Shown here piece by piece: positions 850-24,141 of a stretch of DNA of 64,000 nucleotides (the stretch's first letter is position 1; every line of letters begins with the position of its first letter). The translations under genes were made by a program, and so were the position numbers. The notes below the pieces were generated by a model. The model saw only the letters and a program-made list of their open reading frames with translations, did no database searches and was not told the DNA's origin. The stretch comes from a virus: positions 1 to 64,000 of the IMG/VR virus record IMGVR_UViG_3300036791_001355. One strand, 5' to 3'.

Positions 850-1758
850 TCAGATGATGATGACAGCGGTGGAACCGGCGTTGTTCCAGTTCGCCACCAG
901 ATTCACCCCGTCATAGGTCACGGTCTTGGAGTTGCCGATGGCCACCTGCAGCACCTTCACCGCCAGCGCCCCGCCCGACACCGCCAGCGTCATGGTGCCA
1001 GCGAGCGTGCCCCATTGCGCCGCCGTGCCCGGCAGCAGGTAGGTGAAGTGCTGGTTGTCCGTCCACGTGTTGGCGGTGTGCGTGGTGTTGATCGCCGCCG
1101 TGCCGCCCGTACCGGAATTGGTGGTGCCGGCGATGGTGAACATATCGCCGATGCCGTTGACCGGACTGGCCGCACTCATCACCACCGCCACCTGCCCGCC
1201 ATTGGTGGTGGACCATGTCTGCGAGGTGATGGTGAGCGCACTGCTGGTGGCGGTGTAGGGCACCAGCGCCTGGGCATTGAAGTCCCACGACACCTGTGCC
1301 CCGACCGAGCCACCCTCCAGGCTGGCCAGCGAGGGATCACACTGCACGCAGATGCGCGCCCCGCTGCCGAAGCGATAGAACGGCACCGTCATGCCGGTGG
1401 TGCCGAGCGGTACCTGACTGCCCGGCGTGGTGATCCACGAGAAGGCCTGATTGAACACCGAGAAGCCGATCAGGCCGCCCGCCCCGGTCTGCACCAGAGT
1501 GGTGGCCCGGCCGACGATGGAGCCGAGATTGTCGGCCGGCTGCCCCGGTGTGCCGGCGGGATAGGGGACATATTCGTAGATCCCCACCCCGCCCCACATC
1601 GGCAGCGTCTCGGTGACGCTGAGAATGCCGCCCGCGAGGTCGAAGCGGGCCGCCGGGTCGTCCAGCGCCGTGCCCTGCACGTAGCCTTCCGACTGCACGG
1701 AGAAAGTCCCCGGCGCGGTCGTAACCAGCATCGGGTTGAGGGTGACAAGAGTAGGCAT
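850..1758 (-). CDS. Head decoration/cement-type structural protein
   Basis: SEGYVQGTALDDPAARFDLAGG...PMWGGVGIYE...FYRFGSGARI; position between scaffold and capsid; contains a Thr-rich beta-type insert. Confidence 0.7.
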   Translation of the reverse strand: MPTLVTLNPMLVTTAPGTFSVQSEGYVQGTALDDPAARFDLAGGILSVTETLPMWGGVGIYEYVPYPAGTPGQPADNLGSIVGRATTLVQTGAGGLIGFSVFNQAFSWITTPGSQVPLGTTGMTVPFYRFGSGARICVQCDPSLASLEGGSVGAQVSWDFNAQALVPYTATSSALTITSQTWSTTNGGQVAVVMSAASPVNGIGDMFTIAGTTNSGTGGTAAINTTHTANTWTDNQHFTYLLPGTAAQWGTLAGTMTLAVSGGALAVKVLQVAIGNSKTVTYDGVNLVANWNNAGSTAVIII

Positions 1759-1803
1759 CGCCTGTTTTCCTATTCCTTAGAAGGGTCGACGCGAAGGCGC
1801 GTC

Positions 1804-2898
1804 TTAGAAGGGGTTGGGCTGGGTGTTGATGCGCCGCACCCGGAAGCTTGGCATGCGGAACTGGTCGAGCATGGCGCTGACCGGCCCGACGAACTCGGAG
1901 ATGCGCCGCCCGGTACGGTCGGGCTTGATGACCTCGCGCAGCATCGGCTCCGCCCCCGGCTCGACGCGGTAGGCCGCGCTGACCGCGTCCTTGCGGATTT
2001 CCGGCGCGGCAATCTTCAGCGCCGCCACCGGCAGCTGCCTGAGATCGACGCCCTTCCACTTGTCGGAGTAGCGCTGGAAGTGCCGCGCGTTGCGGCGCAC
2101 GTAGGAGAGCAGGCTCTCACCGTGCATCGGCCGTGACACGCGCTCGCCATGAGCCATGGCGGGCTCGCTCCACAGCTGCTGCTCCTCGGCCAGACGCTCG
2201 ATTTCCTCGTCGGTGGCGCCCCGCTCCAGGGCCTCGATGCGGCGCCGCAGGCTGCTGCTGTCGGCCCGGGTGTCGCGGCGAGCATCGCGGCGATCATCGC
2301 GGCGGTCGTCATCGTCGTCCGAGCGCCCTTCGTCGCCACCCTCTTCCTCGTCGTCGTCCTTGCGGTCGGCCGCCAGCGGCGTCGGCTTCTCCTTATCGCT
2401 AGGCGGTTCCTTCTCTTCCTCCTTGTGCCACGGCTCCTCCTTCTCCTCGCCGGCCCATTCCTCGATGTCCTTCTCCTTGTCCTTGCGGCCGGAATCCTTG
2501 AACGGCGCCGCCTGCTTGCCCTTGAAGTTCTCGATGCCGGCGTCGCGGCGGCCCCGGTCCTTGCGGCCCCGGTCCTTCATCGACACGCCCCGGTCGCCCG
2601 CGTCACGGCGGGCATCGCGGCGGTCATCGTCATCGTCGTCTGACCGCGCCTCCTCCTCCTTCTTCTCTTTGTCTTCTCCTTCCTCCTCGGCATCGTCCTT
2701 GCGGTCGTCATCATCGTCATCGCTGCGGGCATCACGGCGGTCATCGTCATCGTCCTGCTTGCCGCCGCCCTGTCCGAACAGCGCGTCCAGACGTCGTCCG
2801 ATGGCCGCGTGGGCATCTTTCAGGGCCTGCAACTCCCTGTCCTTGGTCTCTTTTTCACCAGCGGGTGGGGTCGCCGCCCGCATTCCTTCTCCAGCCAT
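1804..2898 (-). CDS. Capsid scaffolding protein
   Basis: Start reassigned to ATG 2898 (AGGAGG SD); highly charged D/E/R/K low-complexity N-terminus, conserved-looking C-terminus (REVIKPDRTGRRISEFVG). Confidence 0.7.
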   Translation of the reverse strand: MAGEGMRAATPPAGEKETKDRELQALKDAHAAIGRRLDALFGQGGGKQDDDDDRRDARSDDDDDDRKDDAEEEGEDKEKKEEEARSDDDDDDRRDARRDAGDRGVSMKDRGRKDRGRRDAGIENFKGKQAAPFKDSGRKDKEKDIEEWAGEEKEEPWHKEEEKEPPSDKEKPTPLAADRKDDDEEEGGDEGRSDDDDDRRDDRRDARRDTRADSSSLRRRIEALERGATDEEIERLAEEQQLWSEPAMAHGERVSRPMHGESLLSYVRRNARHFQRYSDKWKGVDLRQLPVAALKIAAPEIRKDAVSAAYRVEPGAEPMLREVIKPDRTGRRISEFVGPVSAMLDQFRMPSFRVRRINTQPNPF

Positions 2899-3056
2899 GA
2901 CGGCTCCTCCTGCTAAGACGCGTAGGCGCACCGAAGGTGCGCGACATCGCGTCGCCCTATGCCCGCGCGTGATGAACCGCCGGGAGGCGGGGCCACTCCC
3001 GGTGTCGGTGGTGTCTCGGTTGCTCGAAATTGCGCAAAAATGCGCAGGGGTTTTGA

Positions 3057-4253
3057 TCAGTCCGGTCGGGAGCGAGACTCCCGGAGACGCGACTTCGCGT
3101 CGACCGAGCGACCTATCGGCCCGATCAGCTGCTCGACCTCGGCCAGCCAGGGCCACGCGAGTGGCCCATTCGCCCTCGGCTCAGGCGCCGAATGGGCCAC
3201 CACGCTGTCAGTTCGCGCCGCTGGGGCGGGCAACTCGATCTCGCCATCGGCCGGCTCGGGATCGCCGATGGCAATGCCGGTAGGCGAGCCGTCCTTGTCC
3301 CACACGCCCAGTTCACAGATGGCGAGGTGATCCAGCAGCGACGGCTCGCCCTCCACCAAGAGATGCTTGCCGCCCGCCAGCTGGCGCGTCTCATTGACGC
3401 TGGGATCACGGAAAATGACCGCCGGGCTGGTCGAGAGCCGGTGGCTGCGCATCACCTCCGCCGCGCGCTGGTCGTAGATCTTGCCGATGCCCCACACTTC
3501 GTCGCCCTCGATGTAGGCAAACACGATGCTGCCGATGACCCGGTTGGTGTACTCCTCGGTGTTCAGTTCGTCGGTGGGCGGGTGCTCGATGATGACCGGC
3601 AGCCCGGCGCAGCGGGCCAGGAACTCGGCGTTGAGATAAATCTCCGGGGGCCGCCAGACATACTCCTCCAACTCGGGCCGGTAGCTCACCCCGGTGCCGG
3701 TGATGCGCAAGGCGAAGAGCCAGATATTCTCGTATTGCTGCGGGCTGCCGAACTCGCCCGAGGCGATGGCGCGGGCGATGTCCAACTCGTTCATGTGCAG
3801 GCGGTCCAGCGCCAGCCGTACGCCGGGATGCAGCGGCTGCGGCGGCGAGCCGGGAGAAGCCCAGACCCAGTCGCTCAACTCGCCGTCGCCGTGGCTGAGA
3901 TCGGGCTCGAACTGCGTCTCGACATGGGCCATGAAGGTGGAATAATCGACGCCCATCAGCATGTTGCGGATGAGCAGGGAGACCGCGCCGTGGGCGGTGG
4001 CGCCCAACTCCTCGGCCACCTCGCGCATGGCCGCCTCGTCGGCCTGCTCGTCGTGCTCGATCTCGCCGCCGGGGAGTTCCCAGGTGTCGCGGTCGCGGTG
4101 GCGCACGAACAGCACGCGGTCGCCGTCGTGGCCCCGGTAGAGGATCAGCAGGCCGGCGCCGTGCAGGATACGGCTGGGCGGGGCTTCATCAGCAGCGAAG
4201 ACTGAATGGGGCTGGGCGTCGTCCAGCCGGATGGCTGGCGAGAGCAGGCGCAT
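3057..4253 (-). CDS. NUDIX hydrolase fused to DUF2213-type prohead protease
   Basis: Nudix box WELPGGEIEHDEQADEAAMREVAEELG; C-terminal RITGTGVSYR...GLPVIIEHP...LSTSPAV...LDHLAICELGVWDK. Confidence 0.8.
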   Translation of the reverse strand: MRLLSPAIRLDDAQPHSVFAADEAPPSRILHGAGLLILYRGHDGDRVLFVRHRDRDTWELPGGEIEHDEQADEAAMREVAEELGATAHGAVSLLIRNMLMGVDYSTFMAHVETQFEPDLSHGDGELSDWVWASPGSPPQPLHPGVRLALDRLHMNELDIARAIASGEFGSPQQYENIWLFALRITGTGVSYRPELEEYVWRPPEIYLNAEFLARCAGLPVIIEHPPTDELNTEEYTNRVIGSIVFAYIEGDEVWGIGKIYDQRAAEVMRSHRLSTSPAVIFRDPSVNETRQLAGGKHLLVEGEPSLLDHLAICELGVWDKDGSPTGIAIGDPEPADGEIELPAPAARTDSVVAHSAPEPRANGPLAWPWLAEVEQLIGPIGRSVDAKSRLRESRSRPD

Positions 4254-9690: not shown

Positions 9691-11318
9691 GCCTTGGCGC
9701 GTACCAGGGTCAGGGCGTCGTTGCCCGCCGCCGTCAGCATGCTCTCGGGCAACTCACGCAGGTGATAGAGGTAGGTATAATAACACCTACAGTTGTGCGT
9801 AACGATTCCATTGGCTATATACCAGCCGCTACTGGTCTGTAGATTGAACACATGCCCCGTCCAGCGCCGCTGATCGACCTTGATGATGCGCGTCACGCGT
9901 ACGAAGCGGGAGAGAGCATTCTCTCGCTGTCCCGTCGGCTGGGAGCGTCGTGCCGATATCTCACTTACAGCCTGGAACAGGCTGGCGTCACGCTCCGCAA
10001 CGGCAGTGAGGCCAGCGTATTGCGGATGGCCCGCGCAGGTGCCGAGGGCCGCGCCAAGCTGATCGCCGCCGCCCATGCCGCCCGTCGCGGCAGTAAGGCG
10101 TCCGAAGTCGAACTGATCCGCCGCGCCAGCCGCAAGCCCCGCCTGCACGGGTTCGGTGAAGACCACGTGCTCACCGCGCTGCATGCCGTCGGCATTGCCG
10201 CCGAAGCGCAGCGGCCGGTCGGTCCATACAACGTCGATATCGCTTTCGCTGCCGTCGCCGTGGAACTGCTTACGCTGCCCACCGCGCACCTCCGTGACCC
10301 CAAGTTCGAACAGCGCGCCGAATATTTGCGCAATGTTGGTTACTGTGTGGTCTTGGTGACTTTCAGATGGAGATACCCGGATGATCTCACCGGCAACCTC
10401 GATGAGGTCATCGCCTTCTTGCAAGGCGCCAATAGCGACCCAGCCGTCAGGCGTCAGGACTGGATGATTCGGTGTGGCGCGCAGCGTTTTGCCCGTGGCC
10501 GTAATCACCTTGGTCAGCTGACCGCTGTACCAACGCCGGTACGCTACTTCCACACCGTCAGCGAATGGAATCTGCGTCGTGCCGGGTAAGCAGTACACTT
10601 CCTCGCCCGGCTGCGTGATCTGGTCGGTGTAGCCGGCCCGCCCGGCCTTCATCAGGCGCTGCTGCAAGGCCCAGTTGCCCCGGATGGCATAGACCCAGTC
10701 GGCGCCCTTGTAGCGGGCGTCGCGGTCGCGGTGATCGGGCCGGAAATCGTAGTGCACCTGCCTGAAGTGACTGCGCCACAGGGCGGCGATGGCGCCGCCG
10801 TCGGTGGCCAGGATGCTGTTGATCGCCGACACCAGCTTGTGGCCCTGGTCGATCAGCACCCGCCGCTCGCGGAAACTCTGCCCGGCCAGTTCCTTGCGCA
10901 CGTCGTTCTTGGTCTCGACCTTGTCGACCTTGGCGCCGCCGACCGGGATCGAGGTGGCCCAGCCCTGAAAGCGCCGCAGCGTGTCGGCGATGGTCTGCTG
11001 GCGGTTCAGCTTGATGAGGTTGGCCGAGGCCAGGATGCGCCGGTCTAGCTCGGCCCGCAGCTTCGGCTTGACCAGTTCCAGGGTGAAGCGAGAGACGCCC
11101 GGGTGGTGGCGCAGGATCAGGCCCCGGTTGATCAGCCGCTCATAGGTGCCCGCCAACACCCGGCGCAGCTGCTCGTCCAGCACCGCCTCGGAGACCATCT
11201 GCTCCAGCGCCGACTGGCGGATGGTCTCGACCCAGTATTGCAACCGCTCCTCGCTGTCGTAGCCGTGCTCGGCGAGATCGGCGACGGCGGCCGAGACGGT
11301 TTCGAAGAACGTCGCCAT
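9687..11318 (-). CDS. MuF/SPP1 gp7-like head morphogenesis protein interrupted by an intein
   Basis: RRVLIDQGHKL...YDFRPDH...QPGEEVY|intein|CRCYYTYLY; position after portal. Confidence 0.85.
   Translation of the reverse strand: MATFFETVSAAVADLAEHGYDSEERLQYWVETIRQSALEQMVSEAVLDEQLRRVLAGTYERLINRGLILRHHPGVSRFTLELVKPKLRAELDRRILASANLIKLNRQQTIADTLRRFQGWATSIPVGGAKVDKVETKNDVRKELAGQSFRERRVLIDQGHKLVSAINSILATDGGAIAALWRSHFRQVHYDFRPDHRDRDARYKGADWVYAIRGNWALQQRLMKAGRAGYTDQITQPGEEVYCLPGTTQIPFADGVEVAYRRWYSGQLTKVITATGKTLRATPNHPVLTPDGWVAIGALQEGDDLIEVAGEIIRVSPSESHQDHTVTNIAQIFGALFELGVTEVRGGQRKQFHGDGSESDIDVVWTDRPLRFGGNADGMQRGEHVVFTEPVQAGLAAGAADQFDFGRLTAATGGMGGGDQLGAALGTCAGHPQYAGLTAVAERDASLFQAVSEISARRSQPTGQRENALSRFVRVTRIIKVDQRRWTGHVFNLQTSSGWYIANGIVTHNCRCYYTYLYHLRELPESMLTAAGNDALTLVRAKA
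9792..10592 (-). mobile_element. Intein (267 aa) in MuF, lacking an in-frame endonuclease
   Basis: N-terminal CLPGTTQI, block B LRATPNHPVLT, block F/G GHVFNLQTSSGWYIANGIVTHN followed by Cys+1; removal restores EEVY-CRC. Confidence 0.9.
9852..10589 (+). CDS. HTH + Vsr/DUF559-like (PD-(D/E)xK) putative homing endonuclease encoded antisense inside the intein
   Basis: YEAGESILSLSRRLGAS...LEQAGVTLR (HTH); GEDHVLTALHAVGI..Q.PVGPYNVDIAF..VAVEL...R.EYLRNVGYCVVLV (DUF559-like pattern). Confidence 0.7.
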   Translation: MPRPAPLIDLDDARHAYEAGESILSLSRRLGASCRYLTYSLEQAGVTLRNGSEASVLRMARAGAEGRAKLIAAAHAARRGSKASEVELIRRASRKPRLHGFGEDHVLTALHAVGIAAEAQRPVGPYNVDIAFAAVAVELLTLPTAHLRDPKFEQRAEYLRNVGYCVVLVTFRWRYPDDLTGNLDEVIAFLQGANSDPAVRRQDWMIRCGAQRFARGRNHLGQLTAVPTPVRYFHTVSEWNLRRAG

Positions 11319-20270: not shown

Positions 20271-20802
20271 CCGGCTCCCTGTGGTCGCTCGAAGGCTCGC
20301 TCCCGTGGTCCTCGCCGTTGGGTTCCGGCTTGGCGTCGATCACCTGCGGCAGGCCGCCCCGGATCAGGATAGTGGTGCCGCCGCCGTTGGCGTAGGTCTC
20401 GTCATCCCGTGGCGGGCGCCACTCCGGGCCACCCTTGCAGAAGAGCCAGTATTTCTGCGCCGCCACGTTGCCGCCGAGGGCGGAGCGCACGACAGCGGTG
20501 GAGATGCGGGCCTTGACCTCATCGAAGGCGTTGGCGAGGTCGCGGTGATAGTGCCGTTCAAGGCTCTGCTCGGTGATGCCCATGACAAGAGCGATGATGC
20601 GGTTGGTATTGCCGTTGGCGCGGAGGACTTGAACGGCGCGACGCTGTTCGTCGGTAGGTTTGAACTTCTTGCGTCCAGCGTTTTTACGAGCCCCGCCTGA
20701 ATTAGCTCGTGGGCCACCGCGTCTCGATTTGGGTTTGGCAGGCGGGACGGGCTCGAACTCTGGCAGTACGGGTTGAATAGGCTCGTCGTCGCCGTCGGCC
20801 AT
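20245..20802 (-). CDS. terS: Terminase small subunit
   Basis: GGARKNAGRK, HTH (NRIIALVMGITEQSLERHY), GNVAAQKYWL; overlaps terL start. Confidence 0.75.
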   Translation of the reverse strand: MADGDDEPIQPVLPEFEPVPPAKPKSRRGGPRANSGGARKNAGRKKFKPTDEQRRAVQVLRANGNTNRIIALVMGITEQSLERHYHRDLANAFDEVKARISTAVVRSALGGNVAAQKYWLFCKGGPEWRPPRDDETYANGGGTTILIRGGLPQVIDAKPEPNGEDHGSEPSSDHREPDGADPPAE

Positions 20803-20887
20803 GGTGATTTGCCTTCAATAGCCACCGTATTTCACCAGTTATGAATGCCGCTCACCCCCGTAATCAGCAAGTTTCAGCAAGCGGTTT

Positions 20888-21076
20888 TTAGCGCGGCCAA
20901 TGGGTGAGGAGCCAGATGATGGCAGCGCCGAGGGCGAGGGTGGCGGCGGAGAGGCCGAGCATGGCGCCGGTCATGGTGCCGTTTCCCTGGTCGAAATAGG
21001 TCATGACGAAGAGCAGCAGGATGATGAGCAGGATGATGGCCAGGGAGCCCCATCCTGCGGCATCCAGGCCGCTCAG
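20888..21076 (-). CDS. Small two-TM membrane protein (not in ORF track; apparent CTG start overlapping MTase stop)
   Basis: (L)[61 protein letters not shown]. Confidence 0.4.
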   Translation of the reverse strand: MSGLDAAGWGSLAIILLIILLLFVMTYFDQGNGTMTGAMLGLSAATLALGAAIIWLLTHWPR

Positions 21077-22629
21077 GGGTGTGGGCCTGTGGCGACATAG
21101 GCGAACAGCGGGAGGTCGTCCTCGACGCGCTGCTTGGCCATGGCGCAGTAGGTGGGGTTGAGGTCGATGCCGATGGCGTGGCGCTGGAGTCTATCGGCGG
21201 CGAGGAGGGTGGTACCGGCGCCTGAGAAGCAATCTAAAACTACACAGGGAACCGGAGCAGGAGTTGTCCACTCCATGCGTGATCCACAGTGTGGGCATTG
21301 CCGCGCATCGGAAACGTCCTCTGACAATGAGGGCAGGTCACAATGTAGACGGGCCTCTTTGCCCCGTCGTGCTGTCTCTTTTCCATCAGTTCCAGATTGC
21401 TGAGGCGATTGTCGAGCCTGTTGCCATTCTTGTGGTGGACCACCTCGGCCGAGGTCAGAAGCCTGCCCAGCTTCTTCTCCATAACCAGCCGATGCTCCAT
21501 CACGTAGCCATCGCCCGTTGCATTCGGATGGCCCTTCCGAAGAAGCATCCGGTAACCCTTTGAGGTTACTGTCCACCCCTTCGTTGTGGAGCGATTGGCC
21601 GCTGTCCACCTTTGAGCACAAAGCCTCGAACAGCATTTCTGCCTGCTGGCCACTGGCTGAAACAGGATCGCGCATTGGCTGCATTTGATCGGCTGAAGAA
21701 TGCGTCGTCCTGGCATCCTTATGGTCTAGCACGGCCTCACATTTGACACACCGGTATTCATGGCATGGGCAGGCGGGTGTCCAGCCGGTGGTGAGGCGTT
21801 GTATGGGCTCGTTGTAGGCGTTGCCTGCGGTGCCGCGTGAGTGCCGTGCCTCTTGCTTTGGTCCCATCCAGTGATCGTGGCGGCGGTAGGTGATTTCGCT
21901 CTGGCGTATCCATGGGGCACCGCACTGGGCACAGCAGCCGTGCTCGGAGGTTCCGGCCTTGATGCATCGCTCGGCCAGTTCGGGCGGCATGGTGGCGAAG
22001 TGAGCGGCGCTATAGGAGGTGGTGGCGATGGTCCACACGTTGCGGGCGTTGGCGCCCAGAGGATTGAGGGTGACCATGGCGTCCTTGCCGCCCAGGGCGA
22101 TGCGGGCGCCGCGCTCGCCGGTCATGGTGTGGCTGAAGCCGTTCACCGGGGAGCGGGCGCGCTCGATGCTATTGGCTTGGTGCGGCTCGCGGATGGCGTC
22201 GGCGTCGTAGAAATATCTGGGCTGTTTGGTGAGCAGGAAGATGTGCTCGTGGGCTGAGGTCGGGCGGTCGGTGATGGATTCCGGCATGGGATTCGGTTTG
22301 CACCAGATGATGTCCGAGCGCAGGTACCACCCGTCCGCTTGGAGCGCGAGGGCGACGCGGGCGGGCATTAGCTGCAGCTGCTTGTTGGTGTGGCCGTCGC
22401 CCAGGTTCAGCCACAAGGTGCCATCGGGGCGGAGAATGCGGCGCACCTCGCGGAAGACCGCGACCAGGGTGGTGATATAGGCCTCTGGCGTAGCTTCCAA
22501 GCCGATCTGGGCGGCCATGCCATAGTTCCTGTGCCCGTAGTAAGGGGGGCTGGTGACACAGCTGTGGACGCTGCTTGCGGGCAGGGTGGGCAGGATGGTG
22601 CGGCAGTCGCCTTGCAGCAGGCGATTCAC
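21073..22629 (-). CDS. DNA N4/N6 methyltransferase (beta class) with a large in-frame insertion
   Basis: [46 protein letters not shown]; start probably GTG 22629 (track gives 22740). Confidence 0.88.
21240..21716 (-). CDS. HNH homing endonuclease nested in the +1 frame of the methyltransferase gene
   Basis: CSQC..F....CCSRLC zinc finger; [18 protein letters not shown]...[20 protein letters not shown]; C-terminal CPHC. Confidence 0.88.
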
Positions 22630-22685
22630 AGGAGCGAGATTTCGAGCGACCCTCGCTGCGAGAGCGAGGCTTCGAGCAACCCCAC

Positions 22686-22943
22686 CTACGCGACCTGACG
22701 GGTGACGCGCCCCGGTGGGTTGTCGATCAGGCTCAGCCACTGAGAGACGGCGGGCGTGCCGTGCAGGCGGTCAAGGCCGCGCAGCCAGGAGGCCAGGGCA
22801 GCGTCGATGGGTTCACGGCCGCGCAGCTGCTTGCGGGTGAAGCTGTCGTCGCGCTGCGCCATTTGCCACAATAACGTCTGGGACCAGCCGAGACGGGTGA
22901 GGATGGCGCGGGCTTCGTCGGGGGTCATGATCATGGGGGTCAT
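22686..22943 (-). CDS. Small HTH-like protein
   Basis: MTPDEARAILTRLGWSQTLL...GREPIDAALASWL. Confidence 0.5.
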   Translation of the reverse strand: MTPMIMTPDEARAILTRLGWSQTLLWQMAQRDDSFTRKQLRGREPIDAALASWLRGLDRLHGTPAVSQWLSLIDNPPGRVTRQVA

Positions 22944-23004
22944 GGCGTGATCCCATAGCATCGGGAGAGGCATTCCTGCCCCTCCTTTTGCTCTCTCTGG
23001 CGGT

Positions 23005-24141
23005 TCAGGCTGCCAGTCCGGGTGCGAAGCTTTGAGCACCCCTCAGCGGGTCGCCCTTGTGGGTGGCGATGGCCTGCCACTCGTGCGGGGACAACTCGAT
23101 GATCTGGCCACCCATCTTCTCGAACTCCGACGCCCGGTCGTAGGCGGGGAGGTCTTCGGCGGTGCGGGTGATGGCGTTGAACAAGCCATAGCGGGTCAGG
23201 CTGGCGCCCTCGATGAGGTGGCGCAGGACGCTGGAGCGCTCGCCGTCGTTCATGCCGAACCGCTTGGCCGTGAACTCGACCACCTTGACCGGGTCCGCCT
23301 CGATCTTCTCGGCCACGGTGCCGGTGATCTGGTCGATGCGGGCGGCGAAGCGAGCCTCGTCGAAAGCCCCCTTCACGACGTCGCGTACCTGCGACCAGAT
23401 GGCCGCGTCGGTCAGCCTCTTGGTCTCGTCGGACAGCAACTCCATGATGCTATCGGTGGACACCAGTTCGTGGCGGGCACCGACGTGACGGCGCTTCATG
23501 CCCTCGTTGGCAAACACGGCCAAGTTCGTGCAGGCCCGCGTCCACACCCCGGTTTCGACCGAGAGGCTGCCGGCACCGACTTCCGAGTTGGAGATGACGA
23601 TGGCGGGCACGCAGGTGTCGAAGATGGTGTGGCTGCCGTCACCCATGCGGCCGCCCTTGGGGATATCGCGGTTGATGCGGTGGTCGCACGCCTTGAGGTA
23701 GAGCTTGCGCTCGGTAATCTCGCAACTGATGACCTCCAGCTGGCAATCAGCCAGCACGGGCAGGATGGCCTCGGCGAGGTCCAAGTTTTCCAACGGCCGG
23801 TACTTGTCGGAGAGGAAAGCGCGGGTGACGCCGTCCATGGTGCGGACGAGGCGCTTGTCGTCAGTCTTGAGCCACGTATTGACGTTGTGGGCCAGCAGGT
23901 CCGGGTTGGTGGTGCGGCAGCGGTCGTAGTACTTGGTCGGGATGCCGGTGTAGACACCGATCTGGTCGTGGGCGATCTCATTGATGCCGAAGATGTTGGC
24001 GGAGCCGCCTACCATGAGGCGAGGCTCCTGACCCCACACGCCCATCTCGATGGCGGTGGCGGGGGCGACGAGGTCACGCTTGGCGTTGGCCTGCCGCTCG
24101 ATTTCGGCGGCGAGTTCGGAAATAGAGCGTCCGACTTTCAT
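23005..24141 (-). CDS. DUF932 domain protein
   Basis: RAFLSDKYRPLEN...ISNSEVGAGSL...RACTNLA..RRHVG...TRYGLFNAITR. Confidence 0.8.
   Translation of the reverse strand: MKVGRSISELAAEIERQANAKRDLVAPATAIEMGVWGQEPRLMVGGSANIFGINEIAHDQIGVYTGIPTKYYDRCRTTNPDLLAHNVNTWLKTDDKRLVRTMDGVTRAFLSDKYRPLENLDLAEAILPVLADCQLEVISCEITERKLYLKACDHRINRDIPKGGRMGDGSHTIFDTCVPAIVISNSEVGAGSLSVETGVWTRACTNLAVFANEGMKRRHVGARHELVSTDSIMELLSDETKRLTDAAIWSQVRDVVKGAFDEARFAARIDQITGTVAEKIEADPVKVVEFTAKRFGMNDGERSSVLRHLIEGASLTRYGLFNAITRTAEDLPAYDRASEFEKMGGQIIELSPHEWQAIATHKGDPLRGAQSFAPGLAA

Follow-up and report, generated by a model that had tools for sequence, protein, structure and literature searches.

An out-of-frame HNH nuclease gene inside a phage DNA methyltransferase gene, probably read through as a cysteine-clasped loop

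Homing endonucleases were thought to require an intron, an intein, or an intergenic site in order to spare the host gene. The locus considered here, in the virus record IMGVR_UViG_3300036791_001355, raises the question of how a nuclease gene of this kind can be accommodated inside a conserved DNA methyltransferase (methylase) gene whose reading frame stays open from end to end. The record is linear, 75.5 kb in length and approximately 80% complete, and its positions 1 to 64,000 constitute the window (the whole stretch of 64,000 nucleotides that was analysed); the sole holder in the sequencing-run listing is a DNA run from a soil metagenome, which is the probable source. The locus lies entirely on the minus strand. 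It quite probably represents a mobile homing-endonuclease element inside a phage methylase gene, which is neither an intron nor an intein and which is read through as a clasped loop of the methylase.

An HNH gene within an open methylase frame

The methylase open reading frame (ORF; 21073..22629, minus strand) was assigned to Pfam N6_N4_Mtase (151.8 bits, in two separate stretches) and encodes 518 amino acids when read through the insert. The frame is open back to 22740 (21073-22740, 555 amino acids), and comparison with homologues makes the GTG at 22629 the likely start. The N-terminal part, delimited by alignment (21763..22629, minus strand), contains motif IV (SPPY) and was modeled by AlphaFold2 with a predicted local distance difference test score (pLDDT) above 90; the C-terminal part (21073..21252, minus strand) contains motif I (FSGAGTT) and the following helices at a pLDDT of 85-97. 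This order of SPPY and then FSGAGTT, together with the methyltransferase fold, is that of the beta-class N6/N4 methylases (PF01555). Both halves of the model, for which an alignment of 70 rows served as input, superpose on the solved beta-class enzymes M.BceJIV, TTHA0409, M.MboIIA, CcrM, and M.PvuII, and the template modeling (TM) score on the target reaches 0.83 for the first three.

The two methylase parts are separated by an insert of about 510 nucleotides (about 21253..21762, minus strand), the boundaries of which were mapped against the insert-less relatives P0016 and P0018. It comprises about 170 host codons (327-496 in the 555-amino-acid frame), is flanked by GWTPACPC and VPCVVLDCF, and is placed directly before motif I (strand beta-1); in P0016 and P0018, the flanks are joined directly (GWAPSCACDA-DVVPATVLDPF). 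The guanine-plus-cytosine (GC) content of the insert is 0.55-0.58, compared with 0.65-0.70 in the flanks. Almost all of it is occupied by a second ORF of 158 amino acids (21240..21716, minus strand), which lies at a +1 offset from the host frame, each methylase codon beginning 1 nucleotide before an HNH codon. This ORF encodes a homing-type endonuclease of the HNH_3 family (PF13392; E = 2.9e-13, 49.7 bits against a cut-off of 24.8) and matches phrog_20891 (4e-23). An N-terminal four-cysteine (Cys4) finger, GYVxEHR, and the residues HH, N, and N (H94, H95, N103, and N107) are invariant across the HNH proteins of 14 embedded loci. The HNH model has a mean pLDDT of 82, with tail residues 141-158 below 50, and its best Foldseek match is I-HmuI, a weak one (E = 0.11, probability 0.97, 26% identity over 77 columns); a phmmer search of the HNH protein against the PDB sequences gave no match. 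An initial annotation of the window, made from the sequence alone, had described a methylase frame running uninterrupted through a lower-GC insert, a complete HNH ORF in the +1 frame ending within AT-ending motif-I codons, the cysteine pairs RCVKC and QCPHCG at the insert ends, and a lack of intein or intron motifs, and all of these features were borne out.

In the host frame, the approximately 170 codons of the insert contain no stop; over the HNH ORF, 6.3 stops would be expected. Permutation of synonymous codons within the HNH ORF gave a mean of 6.3 stops and a probability of no stop of 1e-4, shuffling of its codon order gave 1.5e-4, and redrawing of its codons from the GC-rich host usage gave 0.098. 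Related loci were gathered by HNH similarity alone, which avoids the bias of gene callers, and comprised 10 viral, 80 metagenomic, and 28 genomic loci. In this survey for dual-frame inserts, the HNH match lay wholly within an open frame 250 codons or more in length (400-880 in most cases) at 48 loci, with the offset of the window in 44 of the 48. Where such embedded loci are bracketed by cysteines, none (0/17) contained a host-frame stop, against about 4.4 expected in each (per-locus P from 0 to 0.08), and the stop-free set includes loci with a GC content of 0.39-0.47, for which 4-9 stops are expected. By comparison, 67 free-standing relatives had a mean of 9.6 stops in the same off-frame, where 10.5 were expected. 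Moreover, every HNH match with methylase motifs on both sides (32/32) was contained in one ORF, so that no homologous insert breaking the methylase frame was encountered. The absence of stops in the window, in the 17 bracketed loci, and in the 32 flanked matches shows that the host frame is held open by selection and not by chance, and such selection makes sense only if the host frame is translated.

Codon-phase variability, as compared among the three closest DNA sequences (the window, L001, and L093), follows the same division of the locus. Host position 3 is the most variable in the methylase flanks, the C-terminal part included, and in the block of the 5′ cysteine pair. Throughout the HNH body, variability is highest at the HNH wobble position (host position 1) and lowest at host position 3, and at the 3′ cysteine pair the phase is again that of the host frame.

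With regard to the protein read from the host frame, the insert is hydrophilic, and its interior (residues 308-436) is predicted to be disordered, with a pLDDT below 50. In the insert body, stop avoidance is the only selection detectable on the host frame. Additional selection for a hydrophilic loop was considered and rejected, since free-standing HNH_3 genes, read in the corresponding off-frame, are equally hydrophilic at matched GC content (Mann-Whitney p = 0.14). In the 67 free-standing HNH_3 genes, the off-frame used by the embedded elements is already hydrophilic, with about 15% hydrophobic residues at matched GC content. This property may explain why 44 of the 48 embedded cases share one offset, as only the stops need to be purged, which synonymous T-to-C substitutions in the wobble positions of HNH codons may accomplish.

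The 5′ end of the HNH gene is organized in a recurrent manner. A TAG in the HNH frame (21726..21728, minus strand), formed from the host codons CTA GAC (within V-L-D), lies 9 nucleotides upstream of the HNH ATG; the arrangement is the same in L001 and L093, and the first HNH start codon follows the 5′ TAG by 0-12 nucleotides in 8 of the 10 loci with DNA at this insertion site (hereafter site A). It was also observed that the insert has, at its 5′ end, a sequence similar to that of the host strand located after it (xxVLD at 21724-21732 and VVLDCF at 21232-21243) in the window, L001, L093, L013-L018, and L094, and that the host codons YTA GAN of both VLD copies generate TAG in the HNH frame. The VLD mimicry and the TAG near the HNH start may reflect stop-restart coupling or a remnant of insertion. 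A methylase-HNH fusion made by frameshifting is not supported, given that the HNH-frame TAG precedes the ATG and that no slippery motif at this position is common to the window, L001, and L093.

Cysteine pairs at the ends of the insert

Both ends of the insert carry a cysteine pair in the host frame (residue numbers follow the 518-amino-acid methylase). The 5′ pair, RCVKC (21739..21750, minus strand; TGT GTC AAA TGT, C-V-K-C, C294xxC297), is located upstream of the HNH ORF, and the 3′ pair, QCPHCG (21286..21297, minus strand; TGC CCA CAC TGT, C-P-H-C, C445xxC448), overlaps the HNH tail N-A-H-T-V. A CxxC is present at both ends in 10 of 10 site-A loci with DNA, and CxxC or CxxxC at both ends in the 10 protein-only carriers that were aligned (P0002, P0004, and others, assessed on the host-frame protein alone). 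At least two methylase subfamilies (GW.P.C.C... and HPTVKP...TPP...) are represented among the carriers with these pairs, and the intervening and neighboring residues are variable (CVKC, CVSC, CNTC, CSDC, CPKC, and others). Since the HNH-frame stop ahead of the ATG is itself downstream of the 5′ pair, HNH coding cannot account for its conservation. At the other end, the HNH stop of L094 precedes the 3′ pair, the HNH tail over the 3′ pair is junk-like (ARSAAA-stop) in loci of a second insertion site described below, and the same DNA in the window is modeled with a pLDDT of 85-93 as host-frame segment 441-460 but below 50 as HNH tail 141-158.

The AlphaFold2 model places short strands around both pairs (291-294, C294xxC297, 300-301; and 444, C445xxC448, 451-455) at a pLDDT of 85-93, on either side of the disordered middle. 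In the predicted structure, the strand-turn-strand around each CxxC is the layout of a zinc ribbon, and a cysteine pair was found at either end in every site-A carrier examined. A complex prediction of the two insert ends with zinc scored 0.12 (mark 0.32) and counts neither way. As judged from this model and from conservation, the four cysteines of both pairs would probably bind a single zinc and keep the ends of the loop together. The core of the reading put forward in the initial annotation, a tolerated in-frame loop, holds, with conserved CxxC pairs and host-frame selection at both ends; the structural clamping is probable in view of conservation and of the confidence and secondary structure of the model.

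The cysteine pairs arrive with the insert, since relatives lacking it have just 4-5 residues at this position and are without such pairs. For the same reason, a zinc ribbon pre-existing in the methylase and subsequently entered by the HNH gene was ruled out for this clade.

An alternative is that read-through is real and the cysteine pairs are no clamp, being DNA or RNA signals, part of a neighboring cluster, or remnants in a permissive surface loop. This is considered unlikely. In its favor, the insertion site takes unrelated fillers of 12-44 amino acids in other homologues, and inserts of the published ShiLan type (see below) have no cysteine pairs (PMC11855218); however, C-x-x-C is kept across methylase subfamilies while the surrounding residues vary, host-frame selection is seen at both ends, and the AlphaFold2 model is confident exactly there.

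Several side observations concern the same site. P0069, P0010, P0038, P0021, and P0027 show site A as a variable loop; P0069 has a 40-amino-acid Cys-rich mini-insert (CITCEGTG...CQGCKGNG), and a 15-amino-acid filler is common to P0010 and P0038, the former of which also has the carrier-type VLDCF. This filler, together with the VLDCF of P0010, may be the scar of an insert loss.

Cysteine-bracketed, out-of-frame HNH genes were also observed at a second insertion site, flanked by SGFPKS and G(Y/F)GTALKP, in L059, L060, L068, L071, L078, L087, and L109. The brackets are less uniform here, with CKCGG or CGC at the 5′ end (CxC or CxxC; three loci readable) and usually CPKCGG at the 3′ end. In 27 other loci (L064, L069, L072, L077, L082, L086, L088-L091, L105, L111-L115, L119, and others), members of this HNH_3 clade occupy a third N6_N4 methylase site, out of frame and with intein-like ends (WVYG|CLSEDTE... 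and ...FVARRNGxxFxTGN|SGFPKS), an assignment that is based on motifs, Pfam having found no intein in L105. As one HNH clade has cysteine-pair brackets at two methylase sites and intein-like ends at a third, the bracket may be an exchangeable adaptor. Somewhat speculatively, the split zinc ribbon could be a portable cassette for "structural splicing", in which metal binding would bring the insert ends together as intein halves do by folding and splicing. A nuclease gene might thereby colonize surface loops of conserved enzymes without catalytic removal, and such cassettes may be a route joining free-standing nucleases and inteins.

Splicing, gene decay, and mobility

Introns and inteins are the usual home of homing endonucleases, and the 27 loci with intein-like ends (by motif only) contain the same HNH clade; it could accordingly be proposed that the functional methylase lacks the insert, which would be removed from the RNA as a self-splicing intron or from the protein as an unusual intein, and that the open frame is incidental. 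This is very improbable on several grounds. At the RNA level, an Rfam scan of 20800-23000 returned no intron and no relevant match (E<=1), and the HNH ORF takes up all but about 46 nucleotides of the insert, which leaves no room for a ribozyme; neither the covariance-model core nor the non-coding space of a group I or group II intron is thus present. RNA splicing would also lift the selection against stops, yet none occur in the 17 bracketed loci or the 32 flanked matches. At the protein level, a Pfam scan detected no intein or Hint family in the methylase or the insert, and the junctions CPC|HEY and TPAP|VPC are without the Cys/Ser...HN-Cys/Ser/Thr termini of inteins. The insert does not conform to the definition of an intein (an N-terminal Cys/Ser block A, a TxxH block B, a C-terminal HN before Cys/Ser/Thr, and the Hint fold), and residues 308-436 contain no folded domain.

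That the methylase is dead, or split by a free-standing HNH gene, with the long frame a by-product of GC richness, hardly merits belief: off-frame ORFs are common at 65% GC (hence the P of 0.098 with host-like codons) and methylases are dispensable for many phages (PMC11855218), but the probability is about 1e-4 with the codons of the element itself, carriers with a GC content of 0.39-0.47 are stop-free despite 4-9 expected stops, none of the 32 flanked matches is broken, and the methylase flanks vary at third positions and keep all catalytic motifs.

The distribution of the insert was assessed on a tree of the methylase core, calculated with the insert columns removed (70 rows, of which 15 are carriers). 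The 15 carriers require 13 gains or losses of the insert, at least 12 of which are imposed by branches with good support, and shuffled carrier labels gave a mean of 13.6 changes. The methylase nearest to that of the window, P0010 (63% identity), has no insert. This disjunct distribution lends indirect support to homing.

The codons that follow the insert are also pertinent to mobility. The motif-I codons GTA GTT TTA GAT TGC TTC (V-V-L-D-C-F; 21226..21243, minus strand) are AT-ending, with a GC content at third positions (GC3) of 0.4, compared with 0.89 over the next 45 codons, and they hold the HNH stop TAG (21240-21242) inside the host codons TGT GTA G. A trend towards TTR GAT TGY TTY was found in the site-A carriers L001, L093, L013, L015, L016, L017, L018, and L094, with L019 as an exception, and methylases without the site-A insert have the motif-I codons GTC CTC GAC CCG TTC. 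The HNH stop is made from host codons, namely GTA G in the window and L093 and TTA G in L001. As AT-ending codons recur in site-A carriers of other, GC-rich hosts, these codons travel with the element. They may alter the target site of the nuclease and, as proposed in the initial annotation, immunize it; a co-converted flank accounts for them equally well, as does, to some extent, the need to build the HNH stop from host codons.

Briefly, the proposed mechanism is as follows. The HNH_3 nuclease would cut insert-less methylase alleles near the motif-I codons, and repair would copy the insert in. As the methylase frame is free of stops, the ribosome would read through to yield the 518-amino-acid methylase with a hydrophilic loop of about 170 residues before strand beta-1. 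The strand-CxxC-turn-strand ends would form one zinc site, to judge from conservation and predicted structure, so that the loop ends are held and the methylase halves fold normally. The first five or so codons after the insert, which are AT-ending, move with the element, supply the HNH stop, and may also change the target.

Several points weigh against this interpretation. At 45-70% identity, the carriers provide no record of a recent homing event. The HNH ATG of the window has no usable Shine-Dalgarno sequence, as AAGGA abuts the ATG and is too close (good ones precede the HNH start in several relatives), and a promoter scan of 20800-23100 found no promoter-like site. The phase analysis covers three sequences, which is a small sample. 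Finally, the methylase cysteines C233, C236, C287, and C289 (CxxC ... CxC), which do not vary across the 70 aligned rows, are found immediately ahead of the insert and could complicate a simple one-site model.

With regard to these four cysteines, it was observed that they stop two residues short of the insert; they are a possible native zinc site, in which case a carrier would have two adjoining cysteine clusters.

Further inserts were observed beside the main subject. L001 (IMGVR_UViG_3300045582_000046, 1056-3680) encodes an 874-amino-acid methylase of the clade of the window that is open through two inserts. The first contains a same-site HNH_3 ORF (2770-3465), 70% identical to that of the window. 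The second, of about 170 codons, contains an opposite-strand HNH gene of PF01844 (1969-2421, E = 1.7e-8), and in the host frame it starts near CAAH and finishes near CSC. Elsewhere in the window, an ORF of 245 amino acids (9852-10589, plus strand) lies antisense to a MuF intein (9792-10592), and neither Pfam nor PHROG gave a match for it at E<=0.001.

Known systems and biological significance

The "ShiLan domain" was described in Gosselin et al. 2023 (PMC9957025) and was subsequently reported to conceal an out-of-frame HNH gene, with no added stops, without an intron or intein signature, and with a predicted loop and a disjunct distribution (Arsenault, Gosselin and Gogarten 2025, PMC11855218); another hidden-HNH case was given in the genome note of Applejack (2025, PMC12613952). 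The initial annotation had presented the locus of the window as a third way for homing nucleases to inhabit conserved genes, and as a new discovery this does not stand, since the same design had already been published as the ShiLan domain, or hidden HNH (PMC9957025, PMC11855218). A tblastn search matched Mantra gp64, from a phage of the ShiLan type, and g59 of the Cylindrospermopsis phage Cr-LKS3. As in the window, the ShiLan cases (ShiLan gp65 and Mantra gp64, as well as the insert of Pacc40 gp60) contain an HNH_3-type gene in a different frame of an N6_N4 methylase ORF, a stop-free host frame, no intron or intein signals, a predicted loop, and a disjunct distribution, and the insert is similar at its 5′ end to the host segment after it (PMC11855218). 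The element is thus of the ShiLan type by its hidden HNH gene, stop-free frame, lack of intron or intein, and disjunct spread, but it is not the same orthologous element. Its HNH protein is 36% identical to that of Mantra, and it occupies another methylase subfamily and another insertion site, here directly before motif I; the frame offset is opposite (the host codon begins 1 nucleotide before the HNH codon in the window), and it is found in a soil virus and metagenomes, whereas ShiLan is found in actinobacteriophages. CxxC brackets are present in the window, in contrast to the host frame of Mantra, which is without cysteine pairs; the product of the ShiLan host frame is reported to contain no zinc-finger-like element (PMC11855218). 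No description of the cysteine clasp was found in the ShiLan papers (PMC9957025, PMC11855218), and the wider literature was not searched for it. The hidden-nuclease layout is therefore already known, and the variation here consists of the insertion site, the frame offset, and the cysteine clasp. It was also observed that Mycobacterium phage Mantra gp64 (L011, 1419-3743) has an in-frame LAGLIDADG segment, YWLAGLIDGEGCF, without obvious intein ends, which was noted in PMC11855218.

Other systems resemble the locus in part. Inteins with out-of-frame or antisense homing endonucleases are referred to, citing Gorbalenya 1998 and Gogarten 2002, in bioRxiv 10.1101/2025.01.02.630785, and a non-canonical intein homing endonuclease was reported in a preprint on a dnaX intein (10.64898/2026.09.14.751524). 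In such inteins, as in the window, the nuclease is in another frame and the host-frame stretch is an unstructured filler between ends that must meet; however, protein splicing takes place there, whereas no splicing motifs or Hint fold are found here and the filler is presumably retained. The mobE gene in nrdA of Aeromonas phage Aeh1 (PMC2790892) is likewise an HNH homing-type gene in a conserved phage gene without an intron, but that host gene is split into two ORFs, the products of which assemble, while the host ORF is continuous here. I-HmuI (PDB 1U3E), which is encoded by an intron of Bacillus phage SPO1 and is a nicking homing endonuclease of the HNH type, shares the HNH core; it is located in a group I intron, and the enzyme of the window differs in its C-terminus and in the presence of a Cys4 finger at the N-terminus.

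Read-through hidden HNH inserts, which were published in 2023-2025 from a few mycobacteriophages, are a fourth option for homing endonucleases. The window and the 120 collected loci indicate that this option is widespread in environmental phages and metagenome-assembled genomes, and demonstrate that selection excludes stops from the host frame, also where the genome is AT-rich. Gene callers label such loci as oversized methylases and overlook the nuclease. In one lineage, the conserved cysteine pairs suggest how a junk loop of 170 residues is tolerated beside a cofactor-binding motif, and the clasp, if real, would be a natural design for placing large loops in enzymes.

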